Positions 2,720 to 44,594 of a stretch of 64,000 bases of DNA are shown here, piece by piece. This DNA is from Yuukianura sp. NJ FZ-2021 (lineage: Eukaryota), in assembly GCA_046563655.1 (NCBI GenBank), contig CM102287.1, positions 9,610,001 to 9,674,000 of the forward strand, given 5' to 3'. The position numbers and the translations under genes were made by a program. The notes beneath the pieces were generated by a model. That model ran no database searches, was not told where the DNA came from, and was given only the letters and a program-made list of their open reading frames with translations. How positions within the stretch are numbered: position 1 is the stretch's first letter; each line of letters opens with the position of its first letter.

Positions 2720-2847
2720 TACTGTTATAAACAGGCACATCGATTGACGCAACTACGAGGAAAAGCGTCATCAATTTCATTTGACACTTTGTTTACTTAC
2801 AATGAAAAAAAAACTGTTTCAAAAAACTTTTAAAAAAAAACTGAAAT
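2720..2847. repeat. Direct repeat, copy 2, upstream of the lipase gene
   Basis: Aligns by eye to 32-185 with one deletion of about 20 bp. Confidence 0.85.
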
Positions 2848-5057: not shown

Positions 5058-5797
5058 TCTTATAGGCTTCTTGGTCCAAGATTTCCCACGCCTCTAGCAA
5101 AATTGGACGCAATACCCGGCAGCAGACGTGCAAATTAGAAATTTGGAGCTTAACTAGGAATTATTCTGGAAGAAATGAAGTCCATTGTGTTAAAAAATCA
5201 AGGTTTTCCTTATCTCTTCCTTTCTGTTGTGCAAATAAGTGTTATCTTTTTTTGCAAAGTGTTATGTACATACTTACCTTAACTAAACATGTCACTCCAC
5301 TTATGCCAATAACTCCACAGCCACTTTGTCCTAATTCTGCCACTGTCATGCATTTTTGCGGTAACCTGACTAAAGAGAGAATGTGTTAGTTAAACGGAAC
5401 TTGACATAAAAGTTTCGGCTTAATTAGTGAGTCAAACAATGACAAATCAAAGGAAGTTGTGGGATTAATAGCTAAAGCTTACGTCAAATCAGCTGATTGA
5501 TTCTCGGCTCCTGTCCCGCTCTTCACCTCAGAGTCCAATGTCCAAGTCATACCTTGTCCTGTCCATCCCGAACCAGAACCGGTACCGGTAATACCGACAC
5601 GGTTTCCGGTACCGGTTTGAAGTTATGTCTAGTAGATGAATTGACCTTTGACCCGAAACAGAACAAAAAAAAATGATTAATTGAAATTAGTATTACTTCC
5701 GGTACAAACTTTTTATTCAGACCAAGAAAGTGTTAAAAATTAATTAGGATTTCATCTAATTAGACGTGCCTGGTCGATCGGGTAATTAAAGTGGATT

Positions 5798-6766
5798 TTA
5801 TGGCTTGCATTCCTCATGAAATGGATCCAAATTTCGTAAATCCCGCCACGTCGGTGGAGTATTGTTGACAAGATGGAGTCCACACTTTTTGCAAGGCAGA
5901 GAGAATAAAGTAACATAGGAATGGAACCAAGTGATGTACGATCTGACGGACATTTCTGGATGAATTGGAACATAGAAGTGGAGCATGGCTGCGTTGGCAT
6001 TGTCCGTAACTTTCTGGAATATTTTATACTTCGATTCAGTCCAGAGATCCAGTTCACCATTTTCCAGTTGCATGTCTTCGCTAATCCCGCGTACCATGAC
6101 CCACTCAATTAGCCATCCTTTCAAGATGATTACTGCCCGAAGAGTCCGTCCCAGAGTGACACAAAGTACGGTGTTGGAACCGAGTGGTCGCATGACCTTG
6201 ATGTCCATGTCCTTGTAGGCAGCATTGATAGACATAATGGAATTGTCAATCACGGCAGGATTCTGGACGTTGAAAGCCGATGTGGTGAGGATTTTCCGAC
6301 GTTTGGCTGACAGACTGGCTCCGAAGTAGGTTCTCTTCAGTGGATTTTGGCCAAGGAGGGGTACAGCCAGTCCAGCATATTCGTGAACCTTCTCCAGCCA
6401 TTTGTAGCTGTCAATTAGTTGAGAGTAGAGAGGAATCTTGTCAGCACTGACTTCCTGATTAATCTGACTTGTATTGCCAAGGGTGAATCCACTGGTGGGA
6501 GCATTTAGACTCATGATTAACTTTTCTAGTTCTCTGACATTGGCAATGACCCGTTGCATGTTGGCGTTCAGTTCAACCTTGAAGTTCCGTTCTTTCTCTT
6601 CCGGTGTCAAAGGTTCTGGAGCAGAGGTGTTTGAGTTCTCCAAGTGGTTAGTGATCGACTCAAAAACGTTGTTCATACTACATCGCAGCATCTTGACGTG
6701 CCCTAATGAATTCTGGAGGGTCTCCATCGTAGTGGCGTTCAGTATACTATCTGGTATTGGATTCAT
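5798..6766 (-). CDS. MED27: Mediator subunit 27, intronless CDS
   Basis: LYSQLIDSYKWLEKVHEY, LKGWLIEWVMVRG, SKYKIFQKVTDNANAAMLHF and C-terminal Zn-site CKKCG...PPTWRDLRNLDPFHEECK. The ATG at 6766 follows a splice acceptor. Confidence 0.95.
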   Translation of the reverse strand: MNPIPDSILNATTMETLQNSLGHVKMLRCSMNNVFESITNHLENSNTSAPEPLTPEEKERNFKVELNANMQRVIANVRELEKLIMSLNAPTSGFTLGNTSQINQEVSADKIPLYSQLIDSYKWLEKVHEYAGLAVPLLGQNPLKRTYFGASLSAKRRKILTTSAFNVQNPAVIDNSIMSINAAYKDMDIKVMRPLGSNTVLCVTLGRTLRAVIILKGWLIEWVMVRGISEDMQLENGELDLWTESKYKIFQKVTDNANAAMLHFYVPIHPEMSVRSYITWFHSYVTLFSLPCKKCGLHLVNNTPPTWRDLRNLDPFHEECKP

Positions 6767-7250
6767 CTTGGTCAAGGTCACCTAAAATTTGCAAATAAAT
6801 ACAGACAAACGTTTTTCTTACTAAATAACATGTCAAATTTCGGCAGTCTCAAAAGCGTAAATTACAAATTATAGTAACATAAGTTATATATTTTACCTTT
6901 TACCACAAAGCTCGATTCTCTTGGCTTGACCTTTGACCTGAAACCCGGCCTTTAGATCTAAGAACAATTGAAACAAGATCAACTAATTAATTAAACATTG
7001 AACATGAAATTAATCGGTGCGCTGTTAAAAATTATAACAGCAAACAAAAATCAAAACAAAATAAAATTGGCAAGTTAAAATTTTACGCAGCACAACCCAC
7101 CTTATCACTCTTCAGATTTGGGCAACCTCAATAATTCAAAAATAATTAAATTAATTAAATTTAAATACCATACGATTAATTAATACGTAAAATATTTTAA
7201 AGTTTTATGATTTCTGATTTTTTTAATAATGTTGGTCCACGGTCATGGTT

Positions 7251-7261
7251 AACATGGCGGC
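7251..7261 (+). promoter_or_regulatory. YY1/Pho-like motif in the MED27/LYRM7 divergent promoter
   Basis: AACATGGCGGC matches the YY1 consensus AANATGGCGGC and lies between two head-to-head genes. Confidence 0.4.
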
Positions 7262-7874
7262 GGACCCATCCAAAAAGTGGGAAGACGTTAATCAGTACAA
7301 GACTAATTAACACTTCGGAAAGAAAAAGTAATCTTTCTCAAGAAAGTGAAGATAGGTGAACCAACGGATGCAAAAATCGAGAGACGACTATGAACAAAAT
7401 TCTAAATATTGCAACATAAATTCATTTTATAAAACACTACATTCCACTGGGAACTTTATTTTTGGAAATTTTTAACACTAGACAAACAATTAGAAAATTT
7501 TGAATGGCTTTAACACCATTCAATTTCATTTTCCTAATGTCATTCTCATTAGTGTAAGTTTTTTTTACTAAAAAAAAGAATGAGGGTGTGTGTGGAGGAC
7601 TTTTAGTCGAACCGGGTAAGAGCGGGAAAACTTTTTTGAAATTGGAATTCTTGTTAACTTTCAACTTTGACTTTTCAAAAAAAATTCACACGCTATGGCC
7701 TATGGCTTTTGTTTAATTTTTAATTAAAAATTAATGCAACAATTTAAATTGAAGTTAAAGTAAGCTAATTGATAAAAATTGTTCACGATATGACATTTGA
7801 GTCAGGACGTTTTTACTGAGACTTCCAGGCATATCAATAACGAATTATTGGTGAATCGCTGAATCTTGCCGAAA

Positions 7875-8481
7875 ATGTCTTCCTCCAGGTCAAAGGTAAA
7901 GTTGTGTTTAAGTTTAATTAATCGACATTAGTAATGACAAATTGGAGATGTTGATTGAATAGGTGTTGTCAATTTACAAGGCGATACAGAGGACACGACA
8001 AGATGTTTTTGCTGGAGACGAATCAGCTCTCAGTTGTAAGGATAAACTGTTCTCTCGAAAACGATTTTCAATTTTTGATTTGAGAATACTATTTTACGAT
8101 TTGTAGATGTTCGTGTAAAAATTAAAGAAGAATTTGAGCGGTTCAAGTCAGTGAAAGATCCTGCTGAAATTCAGAATTTGATAAAAGGTTGGTCTTCTGC
8201 TGAGCGATCAAACTTCTGTTCTTCCTAAGTTTCACAGAGTTGCTAATTTTATTTTTTACAGTGGCGGAAGAGAGCGAGGAAATTCTGAGAACGAAGGTGA
8301 TTCAAGCCAAAGAAGTTCGGCCGAACGTTTTTCGTAAGAAACTTGTACTTCATAAAATCTTAAACAAAAGACCTTAAAATTGTTCTGAATCTCCCCGTTT
8401 TTAGAACTCCGATCGGACCATTTGCAGCAAAAATGTACGAATGTCCGAGAGACCTGTGCTGACTGTACTTGTCAACCTTAA
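7875..8481 (+). CDS. LYRM7: Complex III assembly factor LYRM7 (Mzm1), 5 exons
   Basis: Spliced product MSSSRSKVLSIYKAIQRTRQDVFAGDESALSSVRVKIKEEF...DPAEIQNLIKVAEESEEILRTKVIQA matches the LYRM7 pattern (RTR..VF..D..AL..AR.KI.EEF...L...VIQ). Not in the ORF track. Confidence 0.85.
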
Positions 8482-8885
8482 AACCGCCCTGAAATGGATT
8501 CTTCTTTGTTTACTTTTCCAACAGCAGTAACTTCTTAATTACCCATTGTCTTAAAAATCATTTTTAGAATCAATTAAAGAAACTTCTAGTCACAATTTGC
8601 TCATCAATGGAATTCCTTCGCGAGAATTCTAGAATTCTAGGAAGTGTCCACCCTCCCGAGTCCTCATCTTGCTATAGTGGTCACGCCATGGAACAGGTAC
8701 TATGCTAATATTTTACTTAACTTTAACTTGATTGTTAACTTTAAATGTAACTACAATTAACAGGAAGGTCTCATTTTTAATTGGGCATTGTTTCTAGACG
8801 GAGCATTCCAGCGAGCCTCTGCTAATTCAAGCGACTGCTTCAAATTCTTTTCGTGGGAGACAAAGGATTGACGACATCTTGCAAC

Positions 8886-9631
8886 ATGTTGACCTTGCCA
8901 ATGCCAACTAAAGCTGACCTCCTGCGGATCCTTGTGGTCATCGCGTCGGTGATTGGAATCGCTGTAAGTGTCAACGTTATAGTAACGTTTCAAAAAAATC
9001 TATTGTTACAGTACTGAAAACTAGCAATGCCGTCCATTTTGTTCTCAAAGGCCCACGTTTCTTCCATCGTTACTTACATGTACTGTCGCTGTAACCCAGT
9101 TGGCATGGATTTTAAGTCACCGTCAGTCAAGATCGCCTTGACGTACGTCATGTCCTACAAGCAGATCAATCGGTACGAGGCTGTCATGAAAATTGTGGCT
9201 GAAGGGGGCGGAGTCTTGGCTTACATTTGTCTTCTCGTCGCTGCCGTCAGGGTATGGCTAAAAGCCACACGTGAATTTTTTTTTTCAAAAACACTAGTTC
9301 TTCGAAAGACGGAAAAAGTTCGTCTATAGTAATTGTTCGTTTTTTGAATCAGCGCTCCATGGCTGCTGTCATTCTTTTCCTGACGTTGGCCATTTTGTAC
9401 CTCACTGGAATCGCTGGTCACTTGTACATTCTGTTCCGGATGTGGCGTATGGGATTCAAAATGGTGGACTTGAATGACGAAATTGGCACGGCCGTTTTGA
9501 CTTTCACTTACGAATACTTTGCAGTACTACTGGCACTGGCTCTGCTCATTCACATTTGGCGTAAAGCCAAACTCCGGGAATTTGAGACAGTCATGGAGGC
9601 TACTGGAACGTACAACGAAATACCCGTCTAA
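8886..9631 (+). CDS. Uncharacterised four-transmembrane protein (LAPTM/DUF4728-like topology)
   Basis: Spliced MLTLPMPTKADLLRILVVIASVIGIA|AHVSSIVTY...GVLAYICLLVAAVR|RSMAAVILFLTLAILY...FAVLLALALLIHIW has four hydrophobic segments and GT-AG introns. Confidence 0.6.
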
Positions 9632-10929
9632 GGAATGCCCAGTGTGCAGTTTTAATGTATTTTAAAAGTTTACCTGCCTAGTTGCTTTTCTTTTCGTTTT
9701 TCAATCGTTTTCCAAACGATTTTTGTTCATTTTACAAGACTTTTCTGACTCTTCTGCTTCAAGCCTTTTGCTTCTTCCAAGCGGCCAATCTTGGGCAATA
9801 TTTTTTCTTTTCGGCTCCTGTTGCGTCTTTTTCTGCTTTTGTTGTTTTGTTTGTTGTACAATTCCATTTGTAATCCATGACCCCGAACGAAACTTGGACT
9901 CCTTCCGGGATAAGGTTGGTCTGTGGACATAGGCAGACTCGTGTGACACCATTCCATTTCGTCACCAGTCAAATCCGGAGCTGGACCATTTGTATATTAA
10001 CTGATACTTTCGGCGTTGCCTAATTCATTTCAATTAGTGACTTGTAATTAAATGGTTTTTGCAAAAAGTTAAGTCCCAGATTGACTCTATTTTTAGTATT
10101 TTAATAGTCGGATTAGTTTTGGCGAGGTTATTTTTGGTGTCTTGTGGACATGGACATCGAGGATTTCTAGCGGAGCCAAGGATTTAGGGGTGTAAATTCG
10201 CCACCGCTTTTTCGAAATCCGGAAGTCGGATTATGATAGATTTAGACTAAAAAATCCGGATTTCGGAATAATTATGGAATTCTTTGAAGAAGATCCTTGA
10301 ACAATGTGACTTTTGGGGGTAGCTTGGGGTTTGGAACATCCTAGAAGAGGCTGAGAGGGGGATTAATTATTGAGTAAACTATTTTGAAACTGGGCTTTAC
10401 CACTTGAAACTGCTTCTGAGGAAACAATTCCACAGTTGACCTCTGACCCCTTCTGTCCTTCTGTGGAAATGTTATGGTAAAACCACAACAAATCCATATC
10501 TGGTAATCACCTCAACAAATATTATTGTTGTCTTTACAATTTTACAACTTTACTGCGTTTCCTCTCACCCTCTCTAATGCCTTTGGCGTGGTTCGGTTCT
10601 TACCACATCCATGTCCATGCACATCCCATGACACCAAGTTCTGGATTTAATAGTTGATTCAACTCACAAAGTCAAGTCAGTTCATCTCCAGACGTCTTAC
10701 TGAATATAGCTTCCAGAAGTCTACGATTACTGATTAATCTGCGCTTAATATTTTGCTACTCAATTGACAAGGAAACTCCTCTGCTCAAATCTCCAACTCT
10801 GCTCGGTATCACTACGGTCAAGGTTTCCTGGACAGGTCAATTGAGGTCACTTCGTCACCACTCAATTCAGTGGACGCTGGAACTTCAGCGATAAAAGAAA
10901 GTACTGGCCAAATACTGACATACTTGCAG

Positions 10930-11400
10930 CTTCACCCCGACGGTTTCCGCCATTCACCTCCAACGTTCTGCTGACGATTCGCTGGACACTTTACGACGGG
11001 ACACACATCGGTTGACAGATTGTGCTAAAATGGTAGTTGACATGGACGATGCACATCGGGCAGTTCTGGATCGCTGTTCAGAGAGTATCCTGTGTGACCT
11101 GGACTACAATCTAGTCTGTGCTAATCTCATTCTTACTGGAGTGCTCAACTGGAAACTTCATCATATCATCAATGCTCGGCCCACTAATCGGTTGAAAATC
11201 AGAGCCCTCCTTGCCATTCTACCTCGACGGTAACTAAACTTAAGTTGATCATCAATTAATCGATTAACCCAGTGTCCTTCATATCTTTTGTTGTAACTTC
11301 CAGGGGTCCACTGGCTTTTCAACGTTTCCTTGCGGCCTTGGATGCAGCCGACTATGTATGGCTCGTTGAAGAAATTAACCGTGCTCTGTACGACGTGTAA
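10930..11400 (+). CDS. CARD-domain protein (RAIDD/caspase-prodomain-like); 5' exons uncertain
   Basis: MDDAHRAVLDRCSESILCDLD...LILTGVL...I.ARPTNRLKIRALLAILPRR|GPLAFQRFLAALDAADYVWLVEEI fits the CARD pattern (M...HR..L...R..L..DL; LL..LP.RGP.AF..FL.AL). Confidence 0.75.
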
Positions 11401-13316
11401 GTGACAATCATAGGAATTGGACACACTCCAGAAATTCTGCGATAATGAATGGGCAGATTACCGTAGAGCATGCAAAAATCATGACACTAGACAAACAGAA
11501 CTTAATGTCAAGTGTCATGGCATGTCACGAGTTGGTCACTTATGAATCTCTTACTATGCATCGTTGATTTACTACTATGCATCGTTAACGTTTTTGAGAT
11601 CATGTGTGGACTTTCTGGACTCAAGTGAAGTAATGTTTGTTAATTCATGGAATCCACGAGTTAACAAAATTACGCAGTTTGTTTAACTTGTTTTCCATTT
11701 ATTGTGTAAACTAACTTAAACATGATAACTTATCATAACTGAAGCTAATTCTTGTTTCTTCAATTAAACTAGGTACACATCCGAGTCGTACTAAAACTAC
11801 CAAGTCCAAACCAGATTTGCTCATCGCCGTTCTTCCACCACACATCTTCTTCCCTTTTCGTTAATCATCCATCGCAAGAACAACAATTAAGAGTGTATAC
11901 TTGGACTGGATCTTCTGGATGAGTCATCTTACAGTTCAAGATAGATGCATTCCACTACCATTGTTTTGTGTTGACACTTTCCAACATGACGATACTCTAA
12001 CTGTGCAAACTGGAATGTTACCCCATTTATAAATCTGTCCTTAAGCACCGCCCCTTGAGATACTTAAGTTATGAAATCATCAATTGTTTAACCAATTACT
12101 TTATTTTTTGCTACAACGTTAATCGTTAACTATTAAACTATCTTTTTTGTATCTGAATTTAAGCAGGACAGCTTGCGTCACTAACACCGTCCGGAGTTGT
12201 TATTTTTTACTGGAATTGTAAACTCAGGCAGCAAAATCTGTTCTAAGTCGGCATAATTTGTGCCAACCTTGGGATAAGCGCAAGTACAAGTGTTAACAAT
12301 AATAATAAACAAACTGTTCGTGTTCATACAACGGATGGGCTAATTTCAATTTCAAAGTGGTTTTTTACCTATGTGCAAAAAATTTCGCAAATTGGCACTC
12401 CATTTCATAAATTTCGCAACGAATTTTGCACAGAATTTAGGGTGGTTTGGGCCGGTTGCAGAAGCCACTTGTGGAGAAGCGTCACTTTTAGCCAGCGTCA
12501 CACTAATTCTGTGAAACTGTTGTGACCTTATTGGATTTAAAAAAGACATTTATAGCAACTTAATAACTATTAAGTGTCAAATTTTAAATCTTGCATGATT
12601 ACTAACTGAATGACCTCTCTCTCCAAAAGGTCATGACACGACATTTTCAATTCAACGCCACTCCAACAAATGCTCTAGCGTCCTAGCTGCAATAAATTCT
12701 TAGCGGAAGGTACCCGTCTGTTTCTGGATCTGTATCCGTAGTTTACAGGCTTTCCAGATCAACGCCAATATTTGGCGGCTAATCTTAATTAAATTAACTT
12801 CCCTATTCAATGACTAATGAATCTTTTAACACATTTGTGTTTAATTAATCTGTGTACCTTTGTAATTTATGAGGGTGAACTTTCGATTGAATGCTATTGT
12901 CCAAAGAAAATTAAAATCATTATTGTTCTTAGAATCACGGTTTCTGACGCTATGTTTGAAAAGACCGCCAAATTTTAAATAAGTGCCAACAAATTTATTG
13001 TGCAAAAAAATGAGTTGTAAACAAAAACAGATGACAAGATGTTAAAATCTTGACAAGTGTAAGTTACCGCTTTCTTCTTCCTTGTGGTAAGGTAAACTGT
13101 CAAATTGGTTGAATTAATTGCTTAACTCAATTACTTTGGAGGGTAAGGTGTTGAATAGGCTTTCGTGGAGAAGTTGTCATTGCTCGAATCGGCACAGGTG
13201 AAATATTATTTCGAATGTTTTTGTTATTCACTCTTTTAACGTATGTTAAGATGATTAATTGAATAATCTGTTCTAGATTTAGTGGTTACTGAATCTAGAC
13301 TGACGGAGGTATAAAC

Positions 13317-16300
13317 ATGGATAACAGCAATACAGAAGAGAATCAGCAGCAGCCTGTGAAGACCGCGGAGGCGGGAGTACCGTTGGACACAGCTGTTAAG
13401 GTTCTGGAGGTGACTGCCAAGCAAATTGTCGACAGAATTAGCAGTGCCGGTATCGGAGATTCCGAATTCCCTGGATCCGTTTCGTCAACACCAAAAAGAG
13501 GATCCAAAGTTCGGACGATATCGGAAACTAGTGTTTCTTCTACGCGAAGTGGACGTTTGAATTCGTCCAATGAAGATTCAGTGCCTATACCATTACCAAC
13601 TGCATCTGCTTCAGCCCCATCAGCAGAAAGCAGTTTGGTCAATACTTCCTCAGCATCAAGCCAACCATCTCCCGATTCAGGTTCAAATGTTCCCAAAAGC
13701 AGCTCTCCAACTCAATCCAAACGAACTCAAAAGTTGCTAACTGTGCTTCAAGTAAGTTTCTGATCCTGGGTAGAGTCTAATTTATCACATGTGACTAATT
13801 AGTTTTCTGTTTTTAGCACTGGATAAAAGATGTGAGTGACAAGAAAGGGACCAAAGAGGGAGAAGTATTTCATCCTACTGGACACCGTGACAACCTGTAT
13901 TATCTGTCAAGTATTGAATCATTTGCTCGTGACCTTCCGCATTCTAGTCAGGAAGCTTTGGCCCAAAAATTTTCATCCAATCTTCTCAATTGGATCAAAC
14001 ATCTTTTCCATTTCCAGTAAGAAATGTCCAGTTTCTTCTAAAAACGTTTTTTGAAAGTTTTAAAACGTTTCTTTTTCAGAGATGTGTGTGAAGGTGATGT
14101 AGAATACAATCAAATTCTGCCGCACTGGGAGAAGGAAGATGGACTCATAGCCATGACCAAATGGCAACTCCATCTCCATTTTCCGAATCTTCTGTTCAGT
14201 GGTTTCGATACTTTTGCTCAAGAGGATCGATTTCCAGTCATTTACTGCTCAGATGAAGATGTTGGAATTCAAGTCACATCGTCCGTAAGCAACCAATACT
14301 TTACTATGAAAATCATCATTTTTTCTTGGAAAATTCATTTGTGATTGTGTCTTTTGTTATTTTTAGTTGGGTCTTTCAAAAGAGTGCTTTAGTCTCGTCG
14401 AGACAATGGAAAATGACTGGGTAAACACATTCGAGGAACTGATTCTGTTCGACAAGAAGAGAAACATCACCCCAATTATTTTCTTAATCAACATTGGCAA
14501 AAGTAACTTAAAATCAACCAGCTAAAACATCAGCACAACATTCAAATCCCAAATAATCCACAAATAATTTCAATTTTTTCAGCCTCCAAAAACTTAGAGA
14601 AGGGTTGTCACCTCGCCGAAGTTCACCAAATTCCGGTCCACATTTTTGGCAGAAACACTTTTTCGTATTTTGCCAAACGTCCAGAATTGGATCAAATCGG
14701 AAACAGTTTCACTGTTGACCTGAATCCATGGATTCCCAGCCCGCCGATTCCTCATTTGGTAACACAAATACAATATTTTCATTTTGAAAACTTTTTTTCA
14801 AGCACTCAATTTTGAAAAATGTTTTGTTTTAGACAATCTACAAAAAGCCGCTCAAAAGTGATCAGACACAACTTCGAGTCTGTGGACTTGCTCCTCGGAA
14901 CAAAAATCTACAGTTACTTACTCCTTGGTTCTGCACTGAAGTAAACCATGTCACACTTAACATCATTATCATCAAAAACTGTTTTATTTGTCCTTTGACC
15001 TACTAAACTGTTAGTACTAAGACTACTAAAACTAAACTACTATTGTTACATTTTATAGGCTTTTGGTCCAGTTAATACCAAATCACACATTGAGGAAGTG
15101 TGTGAACTAGGACAGTTTCTACTCACCCTTTTGAAAAAGTATTCTTTCCTGTCAATCATCGTAAGTCTCTTGGTTTCTACCAACTTCAACTAAACAATTT
15201 TAACCCAATTTTTGTATTTTTAGCCCAACTGGAGTACCTTGACGGATGGACAAGTCATTGTCTCGTCGCTGATTTTCCGATTTCGGCCGAAAGTGGACGA
15301 AGCAGAGCCAAAATTGACAAACGGCGAAGTGTCTGAAGATCCCTCTCCACAGTATGTGAACGTCCTCAATTCTTGGGTAAGTTCAAATCAAAATGAAAGA
15401 TTTTCAAAAATGTCATTTTTAGAAAATGTTGTTGAAATTTTGAAAAACTGTTTTCCATTTCAGCTGTACCACATTTTTGAGCGAGACTTCAAAGAGCAAC
15501 TGCATATTGAATTTGTTGACGTCAACGGAAACTGGCACATCCTGTTTGACGTTCTCAAGACGCAGAAGTTGACGGCAGCAGATGAACAAGGAATTGAAAA
15601 ACTGTTTGAACATCACATGCAAGTTTTGCATTCAACAGTTGTTAAAAAACGGGAATTTTCTCGTCTTGTGGCAGAAACGACAGAACTGGAAGATGTAGAC
15701 TACGACAGTTCTTGGGCTGGACTAGGAGCTGTTCGCTACATTCCAAAGTTCTATAGAGAAGAAGCGGCTAGGAAAGTGGGCGGAGTCAATGGTCCAGATG
15801 CCCCGCCCCAGAAGAGAGCTCCGCCCCCTGTTCCAGCCAATGAAGATCCAGGATTACATAGGAAGTCAAACATTAATCACCTCAATGCACAAATAGTTGA
15901 CAAACTTAAGGCAATTGACAATGCCTTTTCACTGGGTAAGTTTTCAAAAAAAAAACGATTAAGTTGGAATTCTACTTTTCAAAATTTCGAAACTTTTTTT
16001 TTCTGCCCGTAGGCGTTTATGGTGACGGTGATTGGTGCGTGCAGTTCGGTATGGTTACGGACGAAACCGAAGTTTCCGAATTGCTTCGTCTTGTCATTGC
16101 CACTGGAGAAGACATTGAAGAAAGTTCGGAATTTTTTCAACAAATGAGTGAACTTGTGAAAAAAGGTTCGGGAAAAAAGTCGATTATTTTGATTTTAATT
16201 TCTATTAGCGGTTCTTCAATTGTTTTTAGGAATTGAACGGGCTACGGAAGAGCTGAAACGAGAGAGCGAAGAAGCAATGTGGGAAGAAGGAATTTTGCGA

Positions 16301-16852: not shown

Positions 16853-19420
16853 TTACTTCCGATGGTCCTGAGCGTATCCGACTTGTGGCGGAGCCACTTC
16901 GTCTTTGTACCGTTGTTCTTCTAAGGCCTTGAGTTCTCTGCGCAGAATCTTTCCACTGATGGTCTTAGGAAGTTCCACAACAAATTCAATTCTGCGTGGA
17001 TACTTGTAGGGAGCTGTGTGTTTTTTGCAGTAGTTTTGGAGTTCAGCGATTAACTTCTGTTCGTCACAGTCCTTGTACTCAGCAGACAGAACAATAAAGG
17101 CTTTGACGACACTGCCACGCTCAGGATGTGGAGAAGCGACAACAGCATTCTCAGCTACTGCTGGATGGTTCTGCAGAACTGATTCGATTTCAGATGGTCC
17201 AATTCGATATCTACAGAAAGGTCACCGTTAGGTCAAAGGTCAAGTTAGTCGAGGTAAATGTTAACTTTAAATGTTAAATTGTTACCCTGCGGATATAATT
17301 ACGTCGTCACTTCGTCCAACATAGTACAAGTGACCTTCAGCGTCTTGAATTCCACGGTCACCAGTCAAATAGTAGTCGCCAACAAACGCTTTATGATTTT
17401 CTTCAACTTCCACTCCAACTCCAGATTCCTTGACGTAACCTAAAGTTTTCAAAAGGTCAAAGGTCAACTGTACTAAACAAAATCAAAATTTTAGTTTCTC
17501 AACTCTTGAATTCTTTTTTGAAATTATGAACCTTTGAATAAGCCAATGGGTCGTTGCGGTTTGACCTTGATGGCAAGGTTTCCTTCTGTTCCTCTTGGAA
17601 CTTCTTGGCCAGCATCATCCGTCACCTTAGTCACAAATTAGAGATGGAAATTTAATTAAAGGTCAAAGGTCAACACTCATTTAAAAAACGTCATGTTTAG
17701 GCTTACGCGAATATCGTAGCCAAAGGAAGCAAGGCCCAAGGAATGATCTTTCCGTTTGTCCCCCTTTTGATATCCAACAGCAGCCGTGCATTCGGTTTGG
17801 CCATATAGTGGTTCCAAGGGCACTGTCAAATAGGTCAAAGGTCAAGTGAATAAGTGAAACTTTCAAAAAAGTTCTTGTGATTCCTGTTTTAGAGTGACTT
17901 ACAGTTTGTCTTTTCTGTCCACGCTCTGACGACTTCTGGCTGCACGGCTTCACCGCCAGTGACAGCGTACTGGAGAGATTTGAATTTGAAAAGGGCGGGG
18001 TCAGTTTCTTGAACGATTGACCTGAACAGGGTTGGTGGAGCACAGAAGCCTTTGATTGGTCGGCTACAAAGTACCTCCAGAACTTTTTTGGCTTCGAAAC
18101 GTTCCATCTGTAAAATGTAAAAATGTCAGTTCAAACTTGGACACACCGTGGCCAACGTCAAGATTGACCGTGTGACGTTTTGAAATCGTTAAAAAGTTGA
18201 TTGACCTGGTGAATGTACACTCCGGCACCGGCTATCCAAGGAGCGTAAAAATTTCCGTACGCTGATTTGGCCCACCCAGGATCAGAAATGTTCCAGTACA
18301 GGTCATTTTTCTTGATTGTCATCAACCTGTCGTCACAAAAACGAAAAATTAGGCTCTACTCTAAAACTGACAGTGTTGGTAGTTTGAAAAAGCAAATCGT
18401 CGTAAGTCAATTACTTGGTGGATTGGTAGTGTCCAATTCCATATGACGAATGAGCAATGGCCACTCGCTTCGGCTTTCCTGGAAGGAAGACAAAAATGTA
18501 ACATATGCTAATGCTGGAAGTATTTAAAAGAATGCTGGATGATGGATGCTGGAAGTTTTTAGTACCTGTCGTTCCACTTGTGAAGTACATCTGTGAAATG
18601 TCAGAACTTTTTGTGCGTGAATCCAGGAACTCCAGTATATCAGTGTCCATGACATCCTCGGCAATGTCGTCATACCGAATCCAGTTCTCTGCCGTGATGT
18701 GTTCAATTCTCCGTTTCTTCGGAACAACAATTTTAATTGGAAGTTGACTTTTCATAGCACAGATTCTCTGAGCCTCTTCTATCTTCCACATATTTTCGTC
18801 ATCAGTAATGACGAGACGTGGTTTAGCAGCTTGGAGTCGATATGCAATGTCTTCCGGTGTCAATTGAGTCGTAGCGGGACAAACGATTGTGCCTAGCCGA
18901 AGAGAGGCGAGGTGGAAGAACCACCATTCGGGAACTCTCGGTAGCAAAATGAAGATGGTCGTATGTGGTGGAATGCGTAACGACTTTGGTGAGTCCACTT
19001 TTCTCGGGTCAATTGTTCTGGATAACGCAACGGCAGCCCGGACAGATTCGTTGCGCAGTTGCGACCACGTCCATTGTCTAGAAAGTGAATCTCCTTCTAC
19101 CCAAAGTGCCAACTTCGTTGGATCCGATAGCTAAAATTAGTTAAAGATTCAATTAATTATTACCAATTAAATTATGTAAATAGTTAATGTAATTCAATTA
19201 CTCCCACAATGCGATCATTAACGTAACTTACAACATGGGAGTCAAATACGTCGGAAGCAAAGTTAAAATATTCAGGTGGCGTGCCTGTTCTGAACACATT
19301 TTCAAAGTCAAAGCTCTTGAAGACCGCAGAAGCTTTAGAAAAGAAGCGGTGGTTGTTCAATTGGTGACCTCTTGACCTCTGACATTGGATCAACAACTTG
19401 ACACCTCTTGTCAACCGCAT
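16853..19420 (-). CDS. Mitochondrial medium-chain acyl-CoA synthetase (ACSM family)
   Basis: [81 protein letters not shown] and [13 protein letters not shown], with a basic presequence. Confidence 0.93.
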
Positions 19421-24198: not shown

Positions 24199-25088
24199 TT
24201 ATGCGGCTGGATTTGGATCATTTTGAAAACTGTTAACATCAGCGGACGTTGTTGTGGAAGGTGCACGAGTTGCTCTCGGACCGCCTGCTTCACCAGTACT
24301 GGCGCCAGTTCCTTCCTTATCCTTACGAATGTCATTGTACAACAAGAATCCCAAAACGACACTGCAAATACCTTGGATGATGGCGAATACCTGAAAAAAC
24401 TTTTATGTTCAAAGCGGAAACTAAGATGCTTAATATCTAATTAGTAATTACCCACGCAGCACATGCAAATCCTAGTTTGGTTTTGACAACGCAGTCTGGG
24501 TTAGAGCTAGACGCCCCTTCACCACATTCGAGTTTACCAACCTTCGTCCAGAAAGTGAACACCAAAAGTGCAATCCACCAAAGGCAGATGAGGACGATAA
24601 CTCCTCCGGCAGCTCCATTAACTCCTCCATCCTTGAGACATCATAAGAATAAGAAACGTTTTCAATTGTCAAAACTACGTCCGGAAGTGTCAATTATTCA
24701 CAGTCATACCACTTGCTTCAATACAGTCTGGTCGATATCCGGTCGATTACCAATTCTGAGAAGTATTGTTGCCCATGCGAATTGGAACAAGTACAAAATG
24801 ATGACAATGAATCCAAACAGACCGAACCAGGTCACTTCATCCACGTGGTGCGCTGATTTCGAAGACGAGTAGAATTGTTCTATAACAGTGGTCACAAGGA
24901 CAAGCAACCCAGCAAACTGTTGACCAAAGCATGATATTAATCGATTAACAGTATCACGAATCTAGAATCATAAGTTACTACGTGAGACAACGACAAGTAA
25001 ACGTTTGACTTACCAATAAAATGATTCGGCACAATCCATGCCTGCCTTGGAAGGCAGCGGATAAGTTCATGAACTCACAACCCCTCAT
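24199..25088 (-). CDS. MARVEL-like 4-TM protein, paralogue A
   Basis: MRGCEFMNLSAAFQGRHGLCRIILL|FAGLLVLV...KQV|DGGVNGAAGGVIVLICLWW...FACAAW|VFAIIQGICSVVLG; four exons with phase-0 introns, as in the neighbours. Confidence 0.65.
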
Positions 25089-25687
25089 TTTCTGCTATAG
25101 TTGATTCTTGAGTAAACCGTTAATCGCACAACGAATTCGTTAGTCAATTATCGAACTAATACTCATGTAGTAGTATTGTCTTTAGTTTGTAAAATGGAAG
25201 AAACCATACAAAATGGCTAGCAAAATTTAAAATTCTGGATGCCGTAAGAAATAACGACAGCCATCGTAGCCACCCTGGCGACCATCTTGTGTGGGTGGCT
25301 AGAATACGCAGCTACACCTAATCGCAACATTTTAGCCGCTAGAGCTTTAACACAAGCCTAATCTAAAGTGGCAACATAAGTAGCCGTACAGTGTTGTCAT
25401 CCATTAACTGTAGTCTCATCAAAGTTGCTACATAACGATATTTAGTTAACCCTTACTCCAACCAAAATTATTACAAAAATCAGCTGATTATTTAAACAAA
25501 AAACCCCGCGCCACCCGACGCATGCGTAGACATTTTTACTTTGTTCCCACGCTTTCCCTTCTTCTAAAGGCCAACGACCTCTCGGAATTTTCAAAATTCA
25601 TTGTTTACTTTCAAAATTTCCAGAAAACTCTTCAAAATTTTATTGTCATTCGAATTTGGTTTGGAACTTTCCTCGGTTTTATATGTG

Positions 25688-26760
25688 CTAGCGAAACCGT
25701 CGCGTAAACGTAAAAACCGAAACTGCGGCGCATGCCATACCATAACCAAAGTAAATCTGGAAGAAAACCGATATATAAAAAATAAGTTCCTAGAATTCTA
25801 TGAAACTAATTTTGATAATTAATTAAGTTAATTCTTACACTTCCGAGGACAAAAATCTGAGATCCAATGACATAAACGACATCGGGGTCCATCTTGGTGA
25901 GGACAATGCGTGAGGTCAAGAAGTAGCTGCGGTCATCAATGGCCTTCATAGCCCGGACACTTGGACCTGCATCAATGTTGCTGGATATCCACTTTTCGAC
26001 GTTTCGTCCAGTGGATATCCAGTGGATAATATATTTCATGTGGTTGTATCCAGCAGAAATTGATGGATAATATACAGTGTTGCTGGATGGTTGGACAAAA
26101 TATTTCTTCCACTCTCCTCGAAAATGGTGGATAGTGGATACATCCGGATTTTATTGGTTTCTTCCGGACGAAACTCGGTTTCGTTCATCGGAAACTGGAT
26201 TCTATCCGGATTTATCCATGTATCCAGTGGATATCGCCCGGACGAAATGCTAAAAAAGTGGATATCCAGCACCACTGATAAAATAGATGCTTCCACCTAA
26301 TTTGATGTAGGTGGAAGAAACATTTTATCCAGCCGGCAATATTGACCTGGATGCATGACCAGGACACCTCCAACATGGACATCCGCCACTCCATAGGCTA
26401 TGAGCAGCACTCCTGCGACTGCGTGGGCCACCCCGTCAGTGACCTTGACCCAGCGTCGTTGCAGGGATATCTGGTCCGTCACGAGCAGGAGGAACCACGT
26501 CATGGAGAACAACCAAAATGCAACGAAAATTGTGTCCAGAATGGTGTACAGTGTGGCCAAGTAAAATACTGTACAGATTGTGCCCAGGATCTTTTCAAAA
26601 AAATCAACTCAAATGAAAAATTTCTAAAAAAAAAAAAAAAAAGTTCGAAATTTTATTTTTGAAAGCAAGTTTTAGTTTGTACAAGTGAGATGACACGTAT
26701 CGGCCCATCGGTAGAGTCAGAAAGTTCGCCCCAGAACTTACGCAGGCGTCGAACAGTCAT
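25688..26760 (-). CDS. MARVEL-like 4-TM protein, paralogue B (remodelled intron structure)
   Basis: MTVRRLRKFWGELSDSTDGPIRVISL|ILGTIC...VTDGVAHAVAGVLLIAYG...MHP|GPSVRA...VIGSQIFVLGS|IYFGYGMACAAVSVFTFTRRFR*. Confidence 0.7.
25973..26344. mobile_element. Non-autonomous TIR element (hAT-like MITE) with an 8 bp TSD, forming an intron
   Basis: Termini CAATGTTGCTGGATA and TATCCAGCCGGCAATATTG. Internal ~55 bp inverted repeats (25973-26028 versus 26221-26277) and many GGATATCC motifs. Flanked by acctgcat (25965-25972) and acctggat (26345-26352). Confidence 0.75.
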
Positions 26761-27092
26761 TCTTCAGCGATTTATGCACTGTTTAGAACAAAGTGAAAGT
26801 TTCAAAAATTCAATTTAAATTGCAAAACACAATTATTGTGATTTGTAATTTTGATTTTCAGATTTTGTTTTTGAGTATTTTAAATTGTTGGAATGCATAC
26901 AATCCAGTCAAAATTTTTCAAAATGTTGCTATGGTAAGAAAAAGAATCATTATATAACTGCATAATTTTTTAATTTAAGGGGAGGCTACACTGTGTGTGG
27001 TAGTTTAAAAATTTTAATTTTTCAAATTCATATTTTCTAAATTACAAATTAAACTTTTATTAAAATTAAAGGTAGTTGTTTTAAACTTATTT

Positions 27093-27817
27093 TTAGCCAT
27101 GTGGATTAGATGAAGCCCGGAATAGCCGAAATCCAATAAAGATAAACAGAAATCCATCAAAAATTCCAAAAATCTGAAAAAGAAGAAATATTTAGCAGAC
27201 AAGCCATATTTACATTGTTTTATAATATTAATATGATATATTTTAATATATTAATATAATATTTTAATTATTATCTTACTCCTGCAATTATATTTTGAGC
27301 AAAAAGCCCGCCTCCCCCGGTGTTTCCTACTTTTGCAGTTGGGATAAACCAACAAATGGCTCCGATTATCAATAGGGCTCCACCTCCAACGTGATAGAAA
27401 AAGTCCTAAACAAAAGTAGGTCAGCAGGTCAAGGTCATTTCATAATTTCAAAATTTCGAACTTTTTTGAAAAAAAACTTCAAAGGCTTACCATTTTACTC
27501 AAAATTTCATTTTCTGACAGAGCATCAATCAGAGCAAAGATGATCCAGACCAAGGTGATCATGAAAGTGACGATGAGAACTGCCAGAAAAAATTCAGCTT
27601 CGATGTAATGCACATAGAAATTGCCTGACGCTACCAAACCCAGCAAAATTGTGCCAAGCACCTATTAGTTCAAAAAAGAAGTTCAAAATTTCGAAAACTT
27701 TACTTCAAAATTCTTTTTTTGAAGAAAGTACAGCAGGTTTCCCTTTTTTTTTCCAAAACTTACCACCGTGAGCATCTTCAATTGCCAAATGAGGCTCCGG
27801 AAAATGGCCGTATTCAT
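27093..27817 (-). CDS. MARVEL-like 4-TM protein, paralogue C
   Basis: MNTAIFRSLIWQLKMLTV|VLGTILLGLV...EFFLAVLIV...SKM|DFFYHVGGGALLIIGA...IIAG|IFGIFDGFLFIFIG. Confidence 0.75.
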
Positions 27818-28580: not shown

Positions 28581-29289
28581 ATGAAAATAGCCACGACTGT
28601 TTTCAGAATGGTCTCGTTCGTAAGTTTCAAAATTTTCACAAAAACTGCAAAAATGATAAATTTTTCAAACGTTTGACCTTTGACCTTAGCTGCTTGCAGT
28701 AGTGACTCTTGGCCTTTCAGCTTCAAAATACATAAACCACAGCTACGAAAAGACGCTCATCGGCATCACTTCTACTGTCATCATTTTGTCTTTTATTTGG
28801 ATCGTTCTAACTTTCTTGGGATTGGTCAAAGCCAGCAGCAACTTGACGCGGAGACTCGTACATGCGATTTTGTTTTCAAATTTTGAAAACTGAAATTAAA
28901 AATTTTGAAGTCTTTTTGTATCGTTACAGGATGGAGTTTTTCAAATTGCAGCAGGAATTGCAATGTTGGTTGCCACCGGTCTTTGGATCGTCAATGTCAT
29001 TGACTTTGGAAAGCATTGCGTAGCTGCCAATAGTGCAATATCAGATGCAAAGAGGGAACTGATCAAACAAGGGTTTCAAATAACACAAGACGCCGCCATT
29101 CCCCTTTGCTCCGACTGCGCTAAAGCTCAGCGATTCACGGCTGGAGTAAGTTGACCTCTGACCTCTGACCTCGCATTTTTTCCAATTTCTGGATAATTAC
29201 AGGCATTCGGAGTTCTGACGGGAGCGGCCTATCTAATTCTTGGACTAATACTGCTGGTCAGCCCGAATTCTGCAACGAACCGTCATTAA
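28581..29289 (+). CDS. MARVEL-like 4-TM protein, paralogue D
   Basis: MKIATTVFRMVSF|LLAVVTLGL...YEKTLIG...RRL|DGVFQIAAGIAMLVA...RFTAG|AFGVLTGAAYLILG. Confidence 0.75.
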
Positions 29290-30316: not shown

Positions 30317-31206
30317 ATGGGTTTCAACACCGGTGTTTTCAGTGGCCCGAGCGGAAGTCTCCGTCTATTTACACTCGTAAGAACGCGCTTTACACAAAAT
30401 GAGAAACTTTTTAGTTCAAAATTTAGTTTTTTGAAAAAGTTGTTTTTCAAAGTTCAAAATTTTGAAAACTTTCGAATTCCTGAAAATGTTGAGTTGTGTA
30501 GTAGATGCATGCCGGACAACAATTTGTACATATTTTAGCTAGACGTTTTTACTAAGCAGGTTTCTCTGATCAAATGGTATTTTAGTTATTCAAAGTCAAA
30601 AGTAACGATGTGTAGAGTAGTAAATTAGTTAATTGTGATTAAAATTTTAAGTAATTAGTTAATTTCAATTAATTAGTTGATTTGAATTAATTGCAGATCC
30701 TTGGAGCCATAGTTGTTGGAGTTGCGCAGGATTGTTACTACAGGGGAGTTGACTACGAGGACTTTTTCTTCTGGACTGCTGTCGTCCTCCTCATAGTTTC
30801 AGTGATACTGGCAGTAGCTGCTTTTCTGGGCATCACTGGAGACGCTGTTTTTGTTAAGAAGGGGGTAAGTTGACCTTTGACCTTTGACCCTTTATGTATT
30901 GACCTTTGACCTTTTTGAACAGGATTCTGGATTCCACTTGGTGGGAGGACTGGTGTTCCTCATCGCAGCATGTCTCATGCTCTACAGCATCTTCCACATT
31001 GGAAACAACCGCAGTACGGGTTTCTTCATTGAGAGAATTGCCGCTGGGGTAAGAAAATGTGACCTTTGACCTTAAAAATCCTTTGAGTTTTGACCGCTAG
31101 TTTGTGAAACTTGAGATTTCGAAATTTTGATTTGAAATTCTAGGCGATTGGACTCATCAATTCCCTCGTCTACTGTTCACTTGGTTGGAACATGTGGAGA
31201 AGCTAA
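30317..31206 (+). CDS. MARVEL-like 4-TM protein, paralogue E
   Basis: MGFNTGVFSGPSGSLRLFTL|ILGAIVVGVA...YEDFFFWTAVV...KKG|DSGFHLVGGLVFLIAA...RIAAG|AIGLINSLVYCSLGWNMWRS*. Confidence 0.8.
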
Positions 31207-31671: not shown

Positions 31672-31976
31672 GGGCAATTGCTGCATGATTGCTACGACTC
31701 TCAGAAAACTACGACCACACTTTTCGCATTAGCATACGCTGGAAAATATCACTCAAATCTTTTTTCTTGAGGAAACTGTTCGCTTCATCCAGAAAACAGA
31801 GGTTTTCTGAAGGACATTCGTGAAAACATCGTATTTTTGCCATATTTTGCTTCCTACGGCTAAACGATTATGAAAAGGCAGAAAAAAAGATTTGAGTGAT
31901 ATTTTCCAGCGTATGCTAATGCGAAAAGTGTGGTCGTAGTTTTCTGAGTGTCGTACCAATCATGCAGCAATTGCCC
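31672..31976. mobile_element. MITE with ~95 bp near-perfect terminal inverted repeats (PIF/Harbinger-like ends)
   Basis: GGGCAATTGCTGCATGATTG...GGAAAATATCACTCAAATCTTTTTT is mirrored by AAAAAAAGATTTGAGTGATATTTTCC...CAATCATGCAGCAATTGCCC. Flanks are TAA and CAA; no coding capacity. Confidence 0.85.
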
Positions 31977-33133: not shown

Positions 33134-33736
33134 ATGGACACAAGTGGAGTTTCAGGGTTGGCGGGACTGTTTCGGATTTTGACGCTGGTAAGTACGCTGC
33201 TAGTAGCATATTAAAAATGTTGACCTTTGACCTTTGACCTTTCAGCTCCTAGGCATCGCTGATTTTGGCGTTACCGTGGACGCTTTTCAGCATCACTATC
33301 GAAATGAAGAATTTTTCTTGACAGTGGTCATCGTCTGCCTCGTTTTCTCCAGCATTTCGTTCCTCTTTACTTGTCTTCGTTGGAGCAAACCCAAAATTGT
33401 AAATTTTAATAACTTATTTTATATACTTTTATATTTTATATAATTCATTAAGCATTTGCTCAAATTAGGACATTGTATTCCACATTATCGGAGGAACACT
33501 GCTCCTCATCGGTGGGATTTTAATGCTGTACAGTGTCATTCAGTTCGGTCGAGGCACGTCTGCTTTTGGTCGTTGGTTCTACGGAGTCCGGATTACTTCA
33601 GGCGTAAAACTAATTAAATTAATTAACTTATTTAATTCAACTTAATGAAATTATATTTAAATCTTTTCAGATATTGGGAATCATCAATTCCATCTTCTAT
33701 GGAATTTTGGCGTTTCTCCTCATGCGGAAATCTTAA
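33134..33736 (+). CDS. MARVEL-like 4-TM protein, paralogue F
   Basis: MDTSGVSGLAGLFRILTL|LLGIADFGV...EEFFLTVVIV...PKI|DIVFHIIGGTLLLIGG...RITSG|ILGIINSIFYGILAFLLMRKS*. Confidence 0.8.
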
Positions 33737-42765: not shown

Positions 42766-43950
42766 ATGGACGGAGATCGTGATACTGTTGGTATTCAGAC
42801 GAACTTGGAAGAATCGGATCATGACGGAGACGTTTCGGAATCCAGTTCCTCCGAATCGGATTTTGAAGATCCTTCGGATGCCATGTTGGGCGGACTTCGG
42901 CTTGGCATGAGAAGTATTCGCAGACATGCCAGAACCGAAATCGGAAAATCGGATTCCCGTAATTTCAAAATTTGAAAAGCGTTCTAGCTCTTCAACAAAT
43001 TGTTAAAATTTTGATTTTCTTTAAAGTTGGAGCCATGGAGGATATGAAATTCAAACTGGAGAGTTGTACGCTTCGGCTGATCGCTGGAGAGCAAATGTTT
43101 CTGGAGACTGCTCGTATTGTGGCTGGGGTAGTAGATGACATTTGTTCGGATCCAGAAGCACCGCCGAGTGATCCCGAAGATGAAAACGGAAATCCACGAA
43201 TCACAGTGGCTCGCCTCTGCAGTCGGCACAATGATGACAAGCCACGGATTCCCACGTTGGAACAGATGATGAACGACCAGGTCAAAATGGCTGAAGTAAG
43301 TCGCTGCTCATTCAAAAAGAGGTCAAAGGTCAAAATTTTAATTTCGCGCGTTTTTTTTTTCAGTTGTTCAGTAATCGTATGGAAACTTTTGGAAAAACGC
43401 TGACCAAGGAGACGATGAAGGACCATCCAGAGTATGTCGCTTTGCAGCAAGAAATTGCCAAGGGAGAAGCAGGTTTGAAATGAAAAAGTTTGACCTTTGA
43501 CCTTGACCTGACCTTGAAATTTTTAGATTTTGACCTGAAAGGTCACGTGACGTTGCCTGATTGGACAACGGAGTACCATGAAGAGGATTTGCTGGAGGAC
43601 GAGTCAGTTTTGCCGGCGACTGACCCAATTTCTAAAAAGCCGATGTCCAATCCGCTTCAAAACAAATTCTGCAATCACGTGTTTGAACAAGAGTCAATCG
43701 AATTGTTCATTGAAGAAAATCCAGGTCAAAGGTCAGTAAACTTTAACCGCCGAAAAAATACTTTACTGAACTAAAAAAATAAGTTAATTGACACCTAATT
43801 TAATTAACTTCTAATTTGTTGATTGGTTGTTAAATATTTAGCTGCCCAATGTATGCATGTCAAAACAAACGCCCACTGGAAATTCACCATTTTTTCGCCG
43901 ACGTCAACTTGACACGATGTGTTCGTAAGAAAAACAACAAAATGTTTTAA
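42766..43950 (+). CDS. NSMCE2: SP-RING E3 SUMO ligase NSE2/MMS21-like
   Basis: DPISKKPMSNPLQNKFCNHVFEQESI...SCPMYACQN is the SP-RING signature of Nse2; the N-terminal part is acidic and divergent. Confidence 0.8.
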
Positions 43951-44594
43951 AAATCCTCCCATAAACAAAGAACTAAAACAGAAACTATTTAAAAAGTAAT
44001 TAAACTTTGTTTGTAATTGATTAGTTAATTTTAAAACTGATTATTTGTCAATTTACTTTGAATTTTAATCTTGTTATTGTAAGTAACTTTGTTAAAGTGA
44101 AGCTAAAAAGTAATGGGGTAGAGTGAGACGCGGGAGAAGGTGATGCAATTCTGGCGGGAACAGAATTCAAGATAAGTTTGTTTTTGTTGTAAACTTGAAA
44201 AAAAAAATATTACTCTCACAAATTCAAATCAAACATCAGAAAATCTGTCAAGAACAAAGCAAACTGAGAAGGAAGTCGTCAAAGGTCAAAGGTCACATCT
44301 TTTCAGGAAAGGAAAGAAGAGCTTTTGAGGTAAGATGACTAATGTTATGCGTGTCATTGCGTCCCTGTTGTGGAAGTAAGTAACAACAATAGGTTTTCGA
44401 TTCCGCAGATCAGTTGTTTTGGAGTCGGCGGACCGGATAAAACAGTGACTGTGACCGGTAGACTGCACAAGTTCGGGTAAGTACCAGGTATGGTAGTCAG
44501 AGTTATAAAATGGATGTTGTAACTGCGTGAAGGGGATATCATAGCAGTGTTGAAGTCTTAGAATAGCTTCTGACTTTCGTTGTTTCTCTTCAGG

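Follow-up and report, generated by a model that had tools for sequence, protein, structure and literature searches.

Can an ordinary transposable element found a new spliceosomal intron simply by landing in an exon? This question is raised by a 372-bp insert in a small membrane-protein gene, here called gene B, on the minus strand of a 64,000-nt stretch of DNA deposited as Yuukianura sp. NJ FZ-2021 (assembly GCA_046563655.1, contig CM102287.1, positions 9,610,001 to 9,674,000; hereafter the window, with positions counted from its first letter). A preliminary description of the window had proposed that a single transposon recently created an intron in this gene, that the 8-bp target-site duplication of the element supplies both splice sites, and that the element may come from an undescribed introner family. 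Having followed up that proposal, we lean towards a modified account, in which a hAT-like miniature inverted-repeat transposable element (MITE) founded the intron of gene B and a second copy of the element was later nested within it. The element is probably an ordinary MITE that makes 8-bp duplications, not a specialised introner, and it would have created one intron by a mechanism that is introner-type and already known.

Structure of the insert and its host gene

The minus strand of gene B reads ...GTC ATG CAT CCA G/GT-CAATATTGCCGGCTGGATA...TATCCAGCAACATTG-ATGCAG/GT CCA AGT, where the slashes mark the candidate splice points. The layout and coordinates first described hold, with a 372-bp insert (25973-26344) lying between ATCCAGGT and ATGCAGGT. 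As had been claimed, these flanks form an 8-bp duplication (ACCTGCAT/ACCTGGAT) that is identical at seven of eight positions; by hand calculation with equal base use, identity of at least 7/8 at a fixed position has a chance of about 25/65536. The inverted termini and internal inverted repeats of the insert were recovered as well, in the form of 16 inverted pairs, the best of which spans 26 nt at 92%. Excision from the GT of one duplication copy to the AG of the other (25967-26346) keeps the frame open, again as first described, with the protein reading ...VMHPG/PSVRAMK... across the junction in a complete frame of 172 codons. Only 8 of the 380 nt of the candidate intron (GT and ATGCAG) lie outside the element. 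A search for further copies of the insert within the window found none. The coordinates of all features are collected in Table 1.

The resulting four-exon model of gene B has a 519-nt coding sequence that starts with ATG, runs for 172 codons to one terminal stop and encodes four hydrophobic segments. The insert stands after nt 322 of this coding sequence, in phase 1 of codon 108, in the loop before the fourth hydrophobic segment. If the insert is retained in the transcript, a stop is met after residue 123, 16 codons into the element and before the fourth transmembrane segment (TM4). Gene B is one of six very divergent small four-helix membrane-protein genes that lie on both strands of the window between 24440 and 33700. 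In all five paralogues (A, C, D, E and F) the frame is open at the position of the insert and no intron is present there, as the earlier reading of the cluster had it. This includes paralogue C, whose loop is as long as that of gene B and is also without interruption. The position of the last intron of gene B, which follows the segment that spans the third helix through to the beginning of the fourth, is common to all five, and every paralogue keeps the fourth helix.

Two nested copies of one family

The insert had been taken for a single 372-bp transposon. Transposon DNA it is, but it is not one element; it consists of two nested copies of one family, an outer copy of 161 bp whose ends align with a 4-nt indel and an inner copy of 203 bp with its own 8-bp duplication. 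The inner copy came out of a blind scan in which inverted 14-mers with 8-bp direct repeats on either side were sought. As a control, 30 simulated sequences of the same dinucleotide make-up were scanned; hits averaged 0.2 per 64 kb, and 0 of 30 sequences had one at 13/14 or better. The relationship between the copies can be seen from a cross-wise comparison of their ends. The left end of the outer copy aligns with the reverse-complemented right end of the inner copy at a score of 77, and the reverse-complemented right end of the outer copy aligns with the left end of the inner copy at a score of 53, both far above the likeness, past the first 14 nt, between the two ends of either element itself. 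This cross-wise similarity shows the outer and inner copies to be members of one family in opposite orientation. The simplest reading is a single family with two unlike sub-terminal regions, present twice, nested and in opposite orientation.

Alternatively, two overlapping, or 'interleaved', elements (25973-26277 and 26075-26344) were considered, those pairs of ends being the most alike. This arrangement was replaced by nesting, which is preferred because it explains the inner duplication, the contigs that run exactly from 26075 to 26277, and a version of the locus that is without the inner copy. The nesting model also covers all four classes of contig ends found in DNA runs, as well as pieces such as X4 record 27 (exactly 26075-26277).

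Other copies of the family in public DNA runs

Further copies were sought in public DNA runs. Of five runs with the stretch, four (X1 to X4) were compared at a likeness of at least 80% over a 1.5-kb stretch; these runs may stem from the same sample as the assembly. The contigs matching the stretch number 360, 713, 584 and 165 in X1, X2, X3 and X4, and nearly all of the excess lies over 25961-26368. Over this interval the summed word depth in X1, which is not a copy number, reaches 562-13,599, as compared with 16-95 in the flanks, and the same pattern is found in the other three runs. Contigs also end together at defined places. At 25976 (range about 25973-25976) there are 16 to 20 contig ends per run in X1 to X3, with unlike flanks, and at 26277 there are 12 to 21 per run in all four runs. 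The onward sequences past these two sets of ends disagree with one another (agreement 0.41-0.49). Smaller sets are found at 26075/26092 (11 contigs at 26075 in X2) and at 26331/26339 (5 to 9 per run over 26331-26344). Contigs that end at the termini of the insert are other genomic copies with the same termini, and the shared ends and unlike flanks bear out the earlier suggestion of a family, one that is multi-copy and has defined termini.

The consensus flanks of these other copies, ..TATAAC/CAG.. and ..CTG/CTTATAA.. (the slash here marking the edge of the element), describe an AT-rich palindromic target without AGGT. Within the window, the terminal 14-mer CARTGTTGCTGGAT occurs three times, always within the insert, as against 0.12 expected, and 0 of 100 shuffles reached three. 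A terminal 19-mer matched 18 metagenome loci, in each case by the seed only (19-24 nt) and in sequence of unrelated composition, and these matches were set aside as chance.

The insert is not an assembly artefact, because read-derived contigs bridge both of its junctions, the left by X1 record 1 (25400-26005) and the right by X1 record 7 (26291-26613). No empty site was found among the 15 joints listed of 30, none of which skips 25967-26346. In X4 none of the eight pieces listed bridges a junction, and this run is without cover over 25757-25960, so that it does not address presence or absence.

A second version of the locus

Runs X2 and X3 contain, beside the reference version and at a lower word depth, another version of the whole locus (25400-26900). 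Around gene B its contigs (records 10, 12, 15, 18, 21 and 23) share about 90% identity with the window, a figure given for the non-coding parts. One of them, X2 record 12 (245 nt), runs from exon 3 at 25836 to a point 45 nt into the outer copy (to 26017), then departs from the window for 35 letters and rejoins it at 26277, which amounts to the same exon insertion without the inner copy. Compared by eye, these 35 letters correspond, in diverged form, to 26029-26074 and lead straight into ...GATAAAATAG, the unoccupied target of the inner copy. The outer copy occupies the same exon position in both versions, and its insertion is therefore older than the split between them. The inner insertion would be later than the outer, and would be polymorphic if the second version is an allele. 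The proposal that the intron is recent must be qualified to this extent, since the outer copy is common to versions that are about 7% apart in adjacent non-coding DNA and only the inner copy differs between them.

The second version can also be used to ask whether gene B has been constrained. X3 record 23, the second-version counterpart of 26360-26876, differs at 29 letters, 23 of them listed. Of those listed, 21 lie upstream of exon 2, over 286 nt, and two in exon 2 itself, over 231 nt; both of the latter are third-position synonymous changes (ATC to ATA and TGT to TGC). Change at the non-coding rate would have put 17 differences in exon 2, for which the Poisson P(<=2) is 7e-6; if all 6 other differences were placed in exon 2, P(<=8) would be 0.013. 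Exon 2 is far less diverged than the adjacent non-coding DNA, which suggests that gene B stayed under purifying selection after the shared insertion, and this is hard to square with a dead gene.

Splice signals and predicted RNA fold

The GT (26346-26345) and AG (25968-25967) provided by the two copies of the duplication are canonical, they are the only pair that restores the frame, and on the exon side both ends show a perfect CAG/G. The predicted RNA fold of the 380 nt has an energy of -145.4 kcal/mol (z = -10.1), with 0 of 100 shuffles as good. In this fold the first six bases pair with bases 371-376, which places the splice sites at the foot of one long hairpin. Local splice-site usage was gauged from 11 introns of the neighbouring paralogue cluster, read by eye, whose donors are GTAAG, GTAAA, GTAAT, GTATG and GTACA; statements on how typical a site is rest on these 11. 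A broader donor census, built from frame-bridging GT...AG pairs, was dropped when its 153 'unique' candidates proved mostly spurious (T at +3 in 66). Splicing of the insert as an intron is, in our judgement, the more credible outcome, though by no means assured.

Proposed origin of the intron

The founding event is envisaged as follows. A non-autonomous MITE (about 160-200 bp, with 14-bp inverted ends CA(A/G)TGTTGCTGGAT and an 8-bp duplication) would have entered the loop codons of gene B between the third and fourth helices. The target 8-mer, ATSCAGGT on the coding strand, would have been duplicated, leaving ...CAG/GT on both sides of the element. With the target duplicated, the stretch from the GT of its first copy to the AG of its second would be exactly the element plus one duplication. 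Spliceosomal removal would then restore the original mRNA, and the insertion could persist as a new phase-1 intron. A further copy of the family would later have landed in the first, in opposite orientation, at an ATAA(T/A)ATA site. The intron, about 169 nt long at first, would have grown to 380 nt by this nested insertion, and the long inverted repeats would fold the intron RNA into a hairpin that joins the splice sites. The order of these events, outer and then inner, is one that we infer.

How often such an insertion might arise can be estimated by hand arithmetic. About 5/256 of random 8-bp duplications, or some 2%, would carry AGGT on a given strand. At this rate a high-copy family would therefore make a spliceable insertion now and then, and selection would keep those that fall in working genes.

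Weighing the alternatives

Several observations weigh against the account given above. The candidate donor, GTCAAT, has C at +3, as opposed to A at +3 in 11 of 11 neighbouring introns. The candidate acceptor, TTGATGCAG, is without a pyrimidine tract, local acceptors such as CTCAAG and AAATTAG being equally poor. The inner copy adds an internal acceptor that looks stronger and could compete (TTTTTTAG, minus strand, about 26253), and at 380 nt the candidate intron is four times as long as the other introns of gene B (92 and 82 nt). No relative of the gene B protein appeared in a word-indexed search, and the two large protein libraries examined yielded neither a relative nor an orthologue. As for the second version, it may be either a divergent haplotype, from a mixed or heterozygous sample, or a recent duplicate or diverged paralogue. 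Within it, X2 record 12 is tied to the 35-letter joint by equal depth (69.9) and by geometry (62 = 35 + 27). Finally, the evidence for constraint is one contig comparison, covering exon 2 and the 23 of 29 differences that are listed. In the protein searches, an exhaustive run returned a sole match to gene B, covering 43 residues of a protein of 1,534 (E 3.3e-7); it was taken as a match between hydrophobic segments and rejected.

An alternative is that the insertion simply disabled gene B. The gene would then be a null allele or a young pseudogene, one of six redundant paralogues, and the GT...AG pair would be coincidental and either unused or inefficiently used. The atypical donor (GTC, with C at +3 in 0 of 11 local introns) and the poor acceptor suit this explanation, five neighbouring paralogues could buffer the loss, and in the two protein libraries no homologue shows gene B to be conserved beyond the sample. 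At an AGGT rate of about 2%, moreover, a family with many copies could yield the observed pattern by chance. A disabled gene is nevertheless difficult to reconcile with four exons that are still open, complete with start and stop, and with a frame that only the GT/AG pair of the duplication restores. It also fits poorly with an exon 2 that is much less diverged than the adjacent non-coding DNA and whose two listed differences are synonymous. We regard loss of the gene as unlikely, though it deserves to be taken seriously.

Gene B could also be expressed in a truncated or alternatively spliced form, through read-through or the use of cryptic sites, giving a three-helix protein or degraded transcripts and leaving exons 3 and 4 non-coding. 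Read-through would meet the stop 16 codons into the element, internal motifs such as AG/GTGGAA and TTTTTTAG lie within the insert, and the evidence for constraint spans exon 2 only, all of which would be in keeping with truncation. Once the insert is exactly removed, exons 3 and 4 nevertheless stay open and share the frame of exon 2, the fourth helix is kept in all paralogues, and most of the internal sites are buried in the predicted hairpin. Truncation is rated as highly improbable. Scarcely credible is an older short intron at codon 108 that MITEs later filled: introns are common landing places for MITEs, and it was non-coding DNA that received the inner copy, but none of the five paralogues has an intron there, and no older intron sequence is left, because the 8 nt outside the element and the exon edge form the 7/8 direct repeat.

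Comparison with known elements and introns

With founding by a MITE as the preferred reading, the nature of the element can be considered. The copies are shorter than about 600 bp and have inverted ends, each carries an 8-bp duplication, and many copies have common ends and unrelated flanks, all of which are features of MITEs. As in hAT MITEs, the 8-bp duplication was made by the outer and inner insertions independently, and the elements are short, non-coding and high-copy. The termini, CAATG and CAGTG, fit the YARNG motif of hAT ends. Under the nTnnnnAn rule for hAT targets, only one of two positions is matched by each duplication, and the (C/G)TTATAA(C/G) flank of other copies would fit. P elements and some Mutator-like elements (MULEs) also make 8-bp duplications. 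The two duplications, taken together with these end and target motifs, point to a family that is probably hAT-like.

Single transposon insertions that are spliced from pre-mRNA include Tc1 in C. elegans and Ds and dSpm alleles in maize. Like gene B, these are one-off insertions into exons that are tolerated by means of splice signals near the ends of the element. They differ in that mostly cryptic sites are used and the products are imprecise, whereas at gene B the AGGT within the duplication would allow the message to be restored exactly. In Daphnia, recent intron gains come with short flanking direct repeats.

A closer parallel can be drawn with introners. In the main text of a survey of 3,325 genomes, introners are reported from only two animal groups, and introner families are described as carrying one splice site and taking the other from the duplication (PMC9860276; Gozashti et al. 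2022). The same text describes Florenciella elements that carry neither splice site and co-opt both from the insertion site, and a review treats introner splice sites under the same scheme (PMC11282704; Mob DNA 2024). As these sources portray them, the introners of Micromonas, Aureococcus and Florenciella resemble the gene B insert in that a short DNA transposon with terminal inverted repeats enters an exon, the duplication comes to lie at the exon-intron junctions and removal restores the mRNA at unchanged length. Gene B likewise has an element that makes up the whole candidate intron at a position that is intron-free in five paralogues. There are also differences. Introners, in the same accounts, are many near-identical introns in many genes, whereas here one intron-forming copy is seen and the flanks of the other copies are AT-rich and without AGGT. 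The host is also a terrestrial hexapod, unlike the hosts of those three sets of introners.

Membership of an introner family, which the preliminary description had put forward as possible, is not supported, because the element, which ends in CA...TG, is without a splice site of its own and the consensus flanks of other copies are AT-rich rather than CAGGT. That the family is currently active and repeatedly founds introns at exonic CAG/GT, as a land-animal introner family using both splice sites of the duplication, is considered improbable. Neither nematodes nor springtails are mentioned in the main text of the survey (PMC9860276), and a literature search found no introners in springtails (Collembola), although supplements to surveys could list a case.

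Another comparison is offered by the tunicate Fritillaria borealis, for which the review describes MITE-derived introns whose inverted repeats join the intron ends in the RNA and whose junctions carry duplication-like repeats (PMC11282704). The candidate intron of gene B would share this MITE origin, the end-joining inverted repeats and the duplication-like repeats at its junctions. The Fritillaria introns, on the review's account, have non-canonical ends and need a modified spliceosome, whereas the candidate of gene B has canonical GT...AG.

Genomic context and other features of the window

The window encodes domains of Med27, Med14, TGF-beta and others, as expected of animal DNA. The top named match of its Med27 frame is from the springtail Orchesella dallaii (56% identity over 96% of the query), with insects at 41-49%, and the frame is 81% identical to a metagenome protein. 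The host thus appears to be a springtail-like hexapod; a nematode, which the short introns had suggested, was rejected on this evidence.

Gene B and its paralogues had been labelled as MARVEL proteins, a label that was not confirmed. Pfam scans were run on single exons; the best match to PF01284 came from one exon of paralogue A (E 0.017 and 15.6 bits, where 32.8 is the cut-off). Of the 12 exon translations tested, the remaining 11, from gene B and eight further paralogue exons, gave no match to MARVEL. No Pfam match above threshold was found anywhere in the six-gene cluster, which looks like a lineage-specific family. In the gene B model, the boundary of exon 1 was set from the frame and from likeness to the first exon of paralogue E.

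The cluster differs in one further intron. An intron stands directly before the third-helix exon (D..FH..GG motif) in 5 of 5 paralogues, and gene B is without it. Since exon 2 of gene B is continuous at this conserved site, B seems to have lost that intron. Should the insert be spliced, this loss would be accompanied by the gain of a different intron 56 codons downstream.

Table 1 Coordinates of gene B, its insert and the paralogue cluster, in positions of the window
Feature	Position	Strand	Description
Gene B exon 1	26683..26760	-	ATG at 26760-26758; 26 codons, ending ...VISL, then donor GTACAAAC
Gene B intron 1	26591..26682	-	92 nt, GTACAAAC...TTGAAAAG
Gene B exon 2	26347..26590	-	End of TM1, TM2, TM3; ends ...CAT CCA G
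Upstream outer duplication copy	26345..26352	-	ATCCAGGT on coding strand; last bases GT (26346-26345), candidate 5' splice site
Candidate new intron	25967..26346	-	380 nt, GTCAATAT...TTGATGCAG, phase 1 at codon 108; composite element plus one duplication copy
Composite insert	25973..26344		Outer MITE copy 25973-26074 + 26286-26344, 161 bp, termini CAATGTTGCTGGATA / TATCCAGCCGGCAATATTG
Right inner 8-bp duplication	26278..26285		ATAAAATA, 7/8 match to left copy
Inner MITE copy	26075..26277	+	203 bp, termini CAGTGTTGCTGGAT / ATCCAGCACCACTG, 13/14; opposite orientation to outer copy
Left inner 8-bp duplication	26067..26074		ATAATATA
Downstream outer duplication copy	25965..25972	-	ATGCAGGT on coding strand; AG (25968-25967), candidate 3' splice site
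Gene B exon 3	25839..25966	-	Loop and start of TM4, then donor GTAAGAAT
Gene B intron 3	25757..25838	-	82 nt; same position as last intron of paralogues
Gene B exon 4	25688..25756	-	End of TM4, then stop
Paralogue A	27096-27661	-	TM3-to-TM4 segment a single open frame
Paralogue C	28690-29286	+	TM3-to-TM4 segment a single open frame
Paralogue D	30691-31066	+	TM3-to-TM4 segment a single open frame
Paralogue E	33231-33700	+	TM3-to-TM4 segment a single open frame
Paralogue F	24440-24961	-	TM3-to-TM4 segment a single open frame
Paralogue sites compared for intron before third-helix exon	27406-27490, 28858-28929, 30868-30915, 33420-33470, 24641-24706		Gene B continuous at about 26437 (...WVKVT / DGVAHAV...)

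Two other repeats were observed in the window. A MITE-like structure of 285 bp (31682-31966) has inverted ends TGCATGATTGCTAC / GTACCAATCATGCA (13/14) and long internal inverted repeats. It is flanked on both sides by exact GCAATTGC, a palindromic 8-mer and so possibly part of the inverted ends, and its sequence is unrelated to the family of the gene B insert. The 12-mer TGACCTYTGACC occurs 37 times at no more than one mismatch, as compared with 0.62 expected and 0 of 100 shuffles, for example at 29152-29170, 30871-30911, 33221-33239, 17231-17844 and 43321-44295, often as tandem TGACCTT units. A GTA-type donor motif lies at most 25 nt upstream of 9 of its 27 exact matches, and about six of these are donor sites by eye, such as GTAAGTTGACCTTTGACC. 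The 12-mer could serve as a motif in introns or in regulation, or could instead be a microsatellite-like repeat characteristic of this genome.

Significance

The finding concerns a single locus rather than a process acting across the genome, and its mechanism has been described before. Were the family an active introner family after all, it would be one in a lineage that has no introner on record in the literature searched. The birth of an intron that can be read directly from sequence is rare in animals. Visible here are the ends of the element, the duplication, the splice sites within the duplication, intron-free paralogues and a second version of the locus. If the junction is confirmed in RNA, it would mean that an ordinary MITE can found an intron when its 8-bp target contains AGGT. 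It would also mean that a new intron can grow by nested insertion, and both stages of this growth may still be segregating in the sample.

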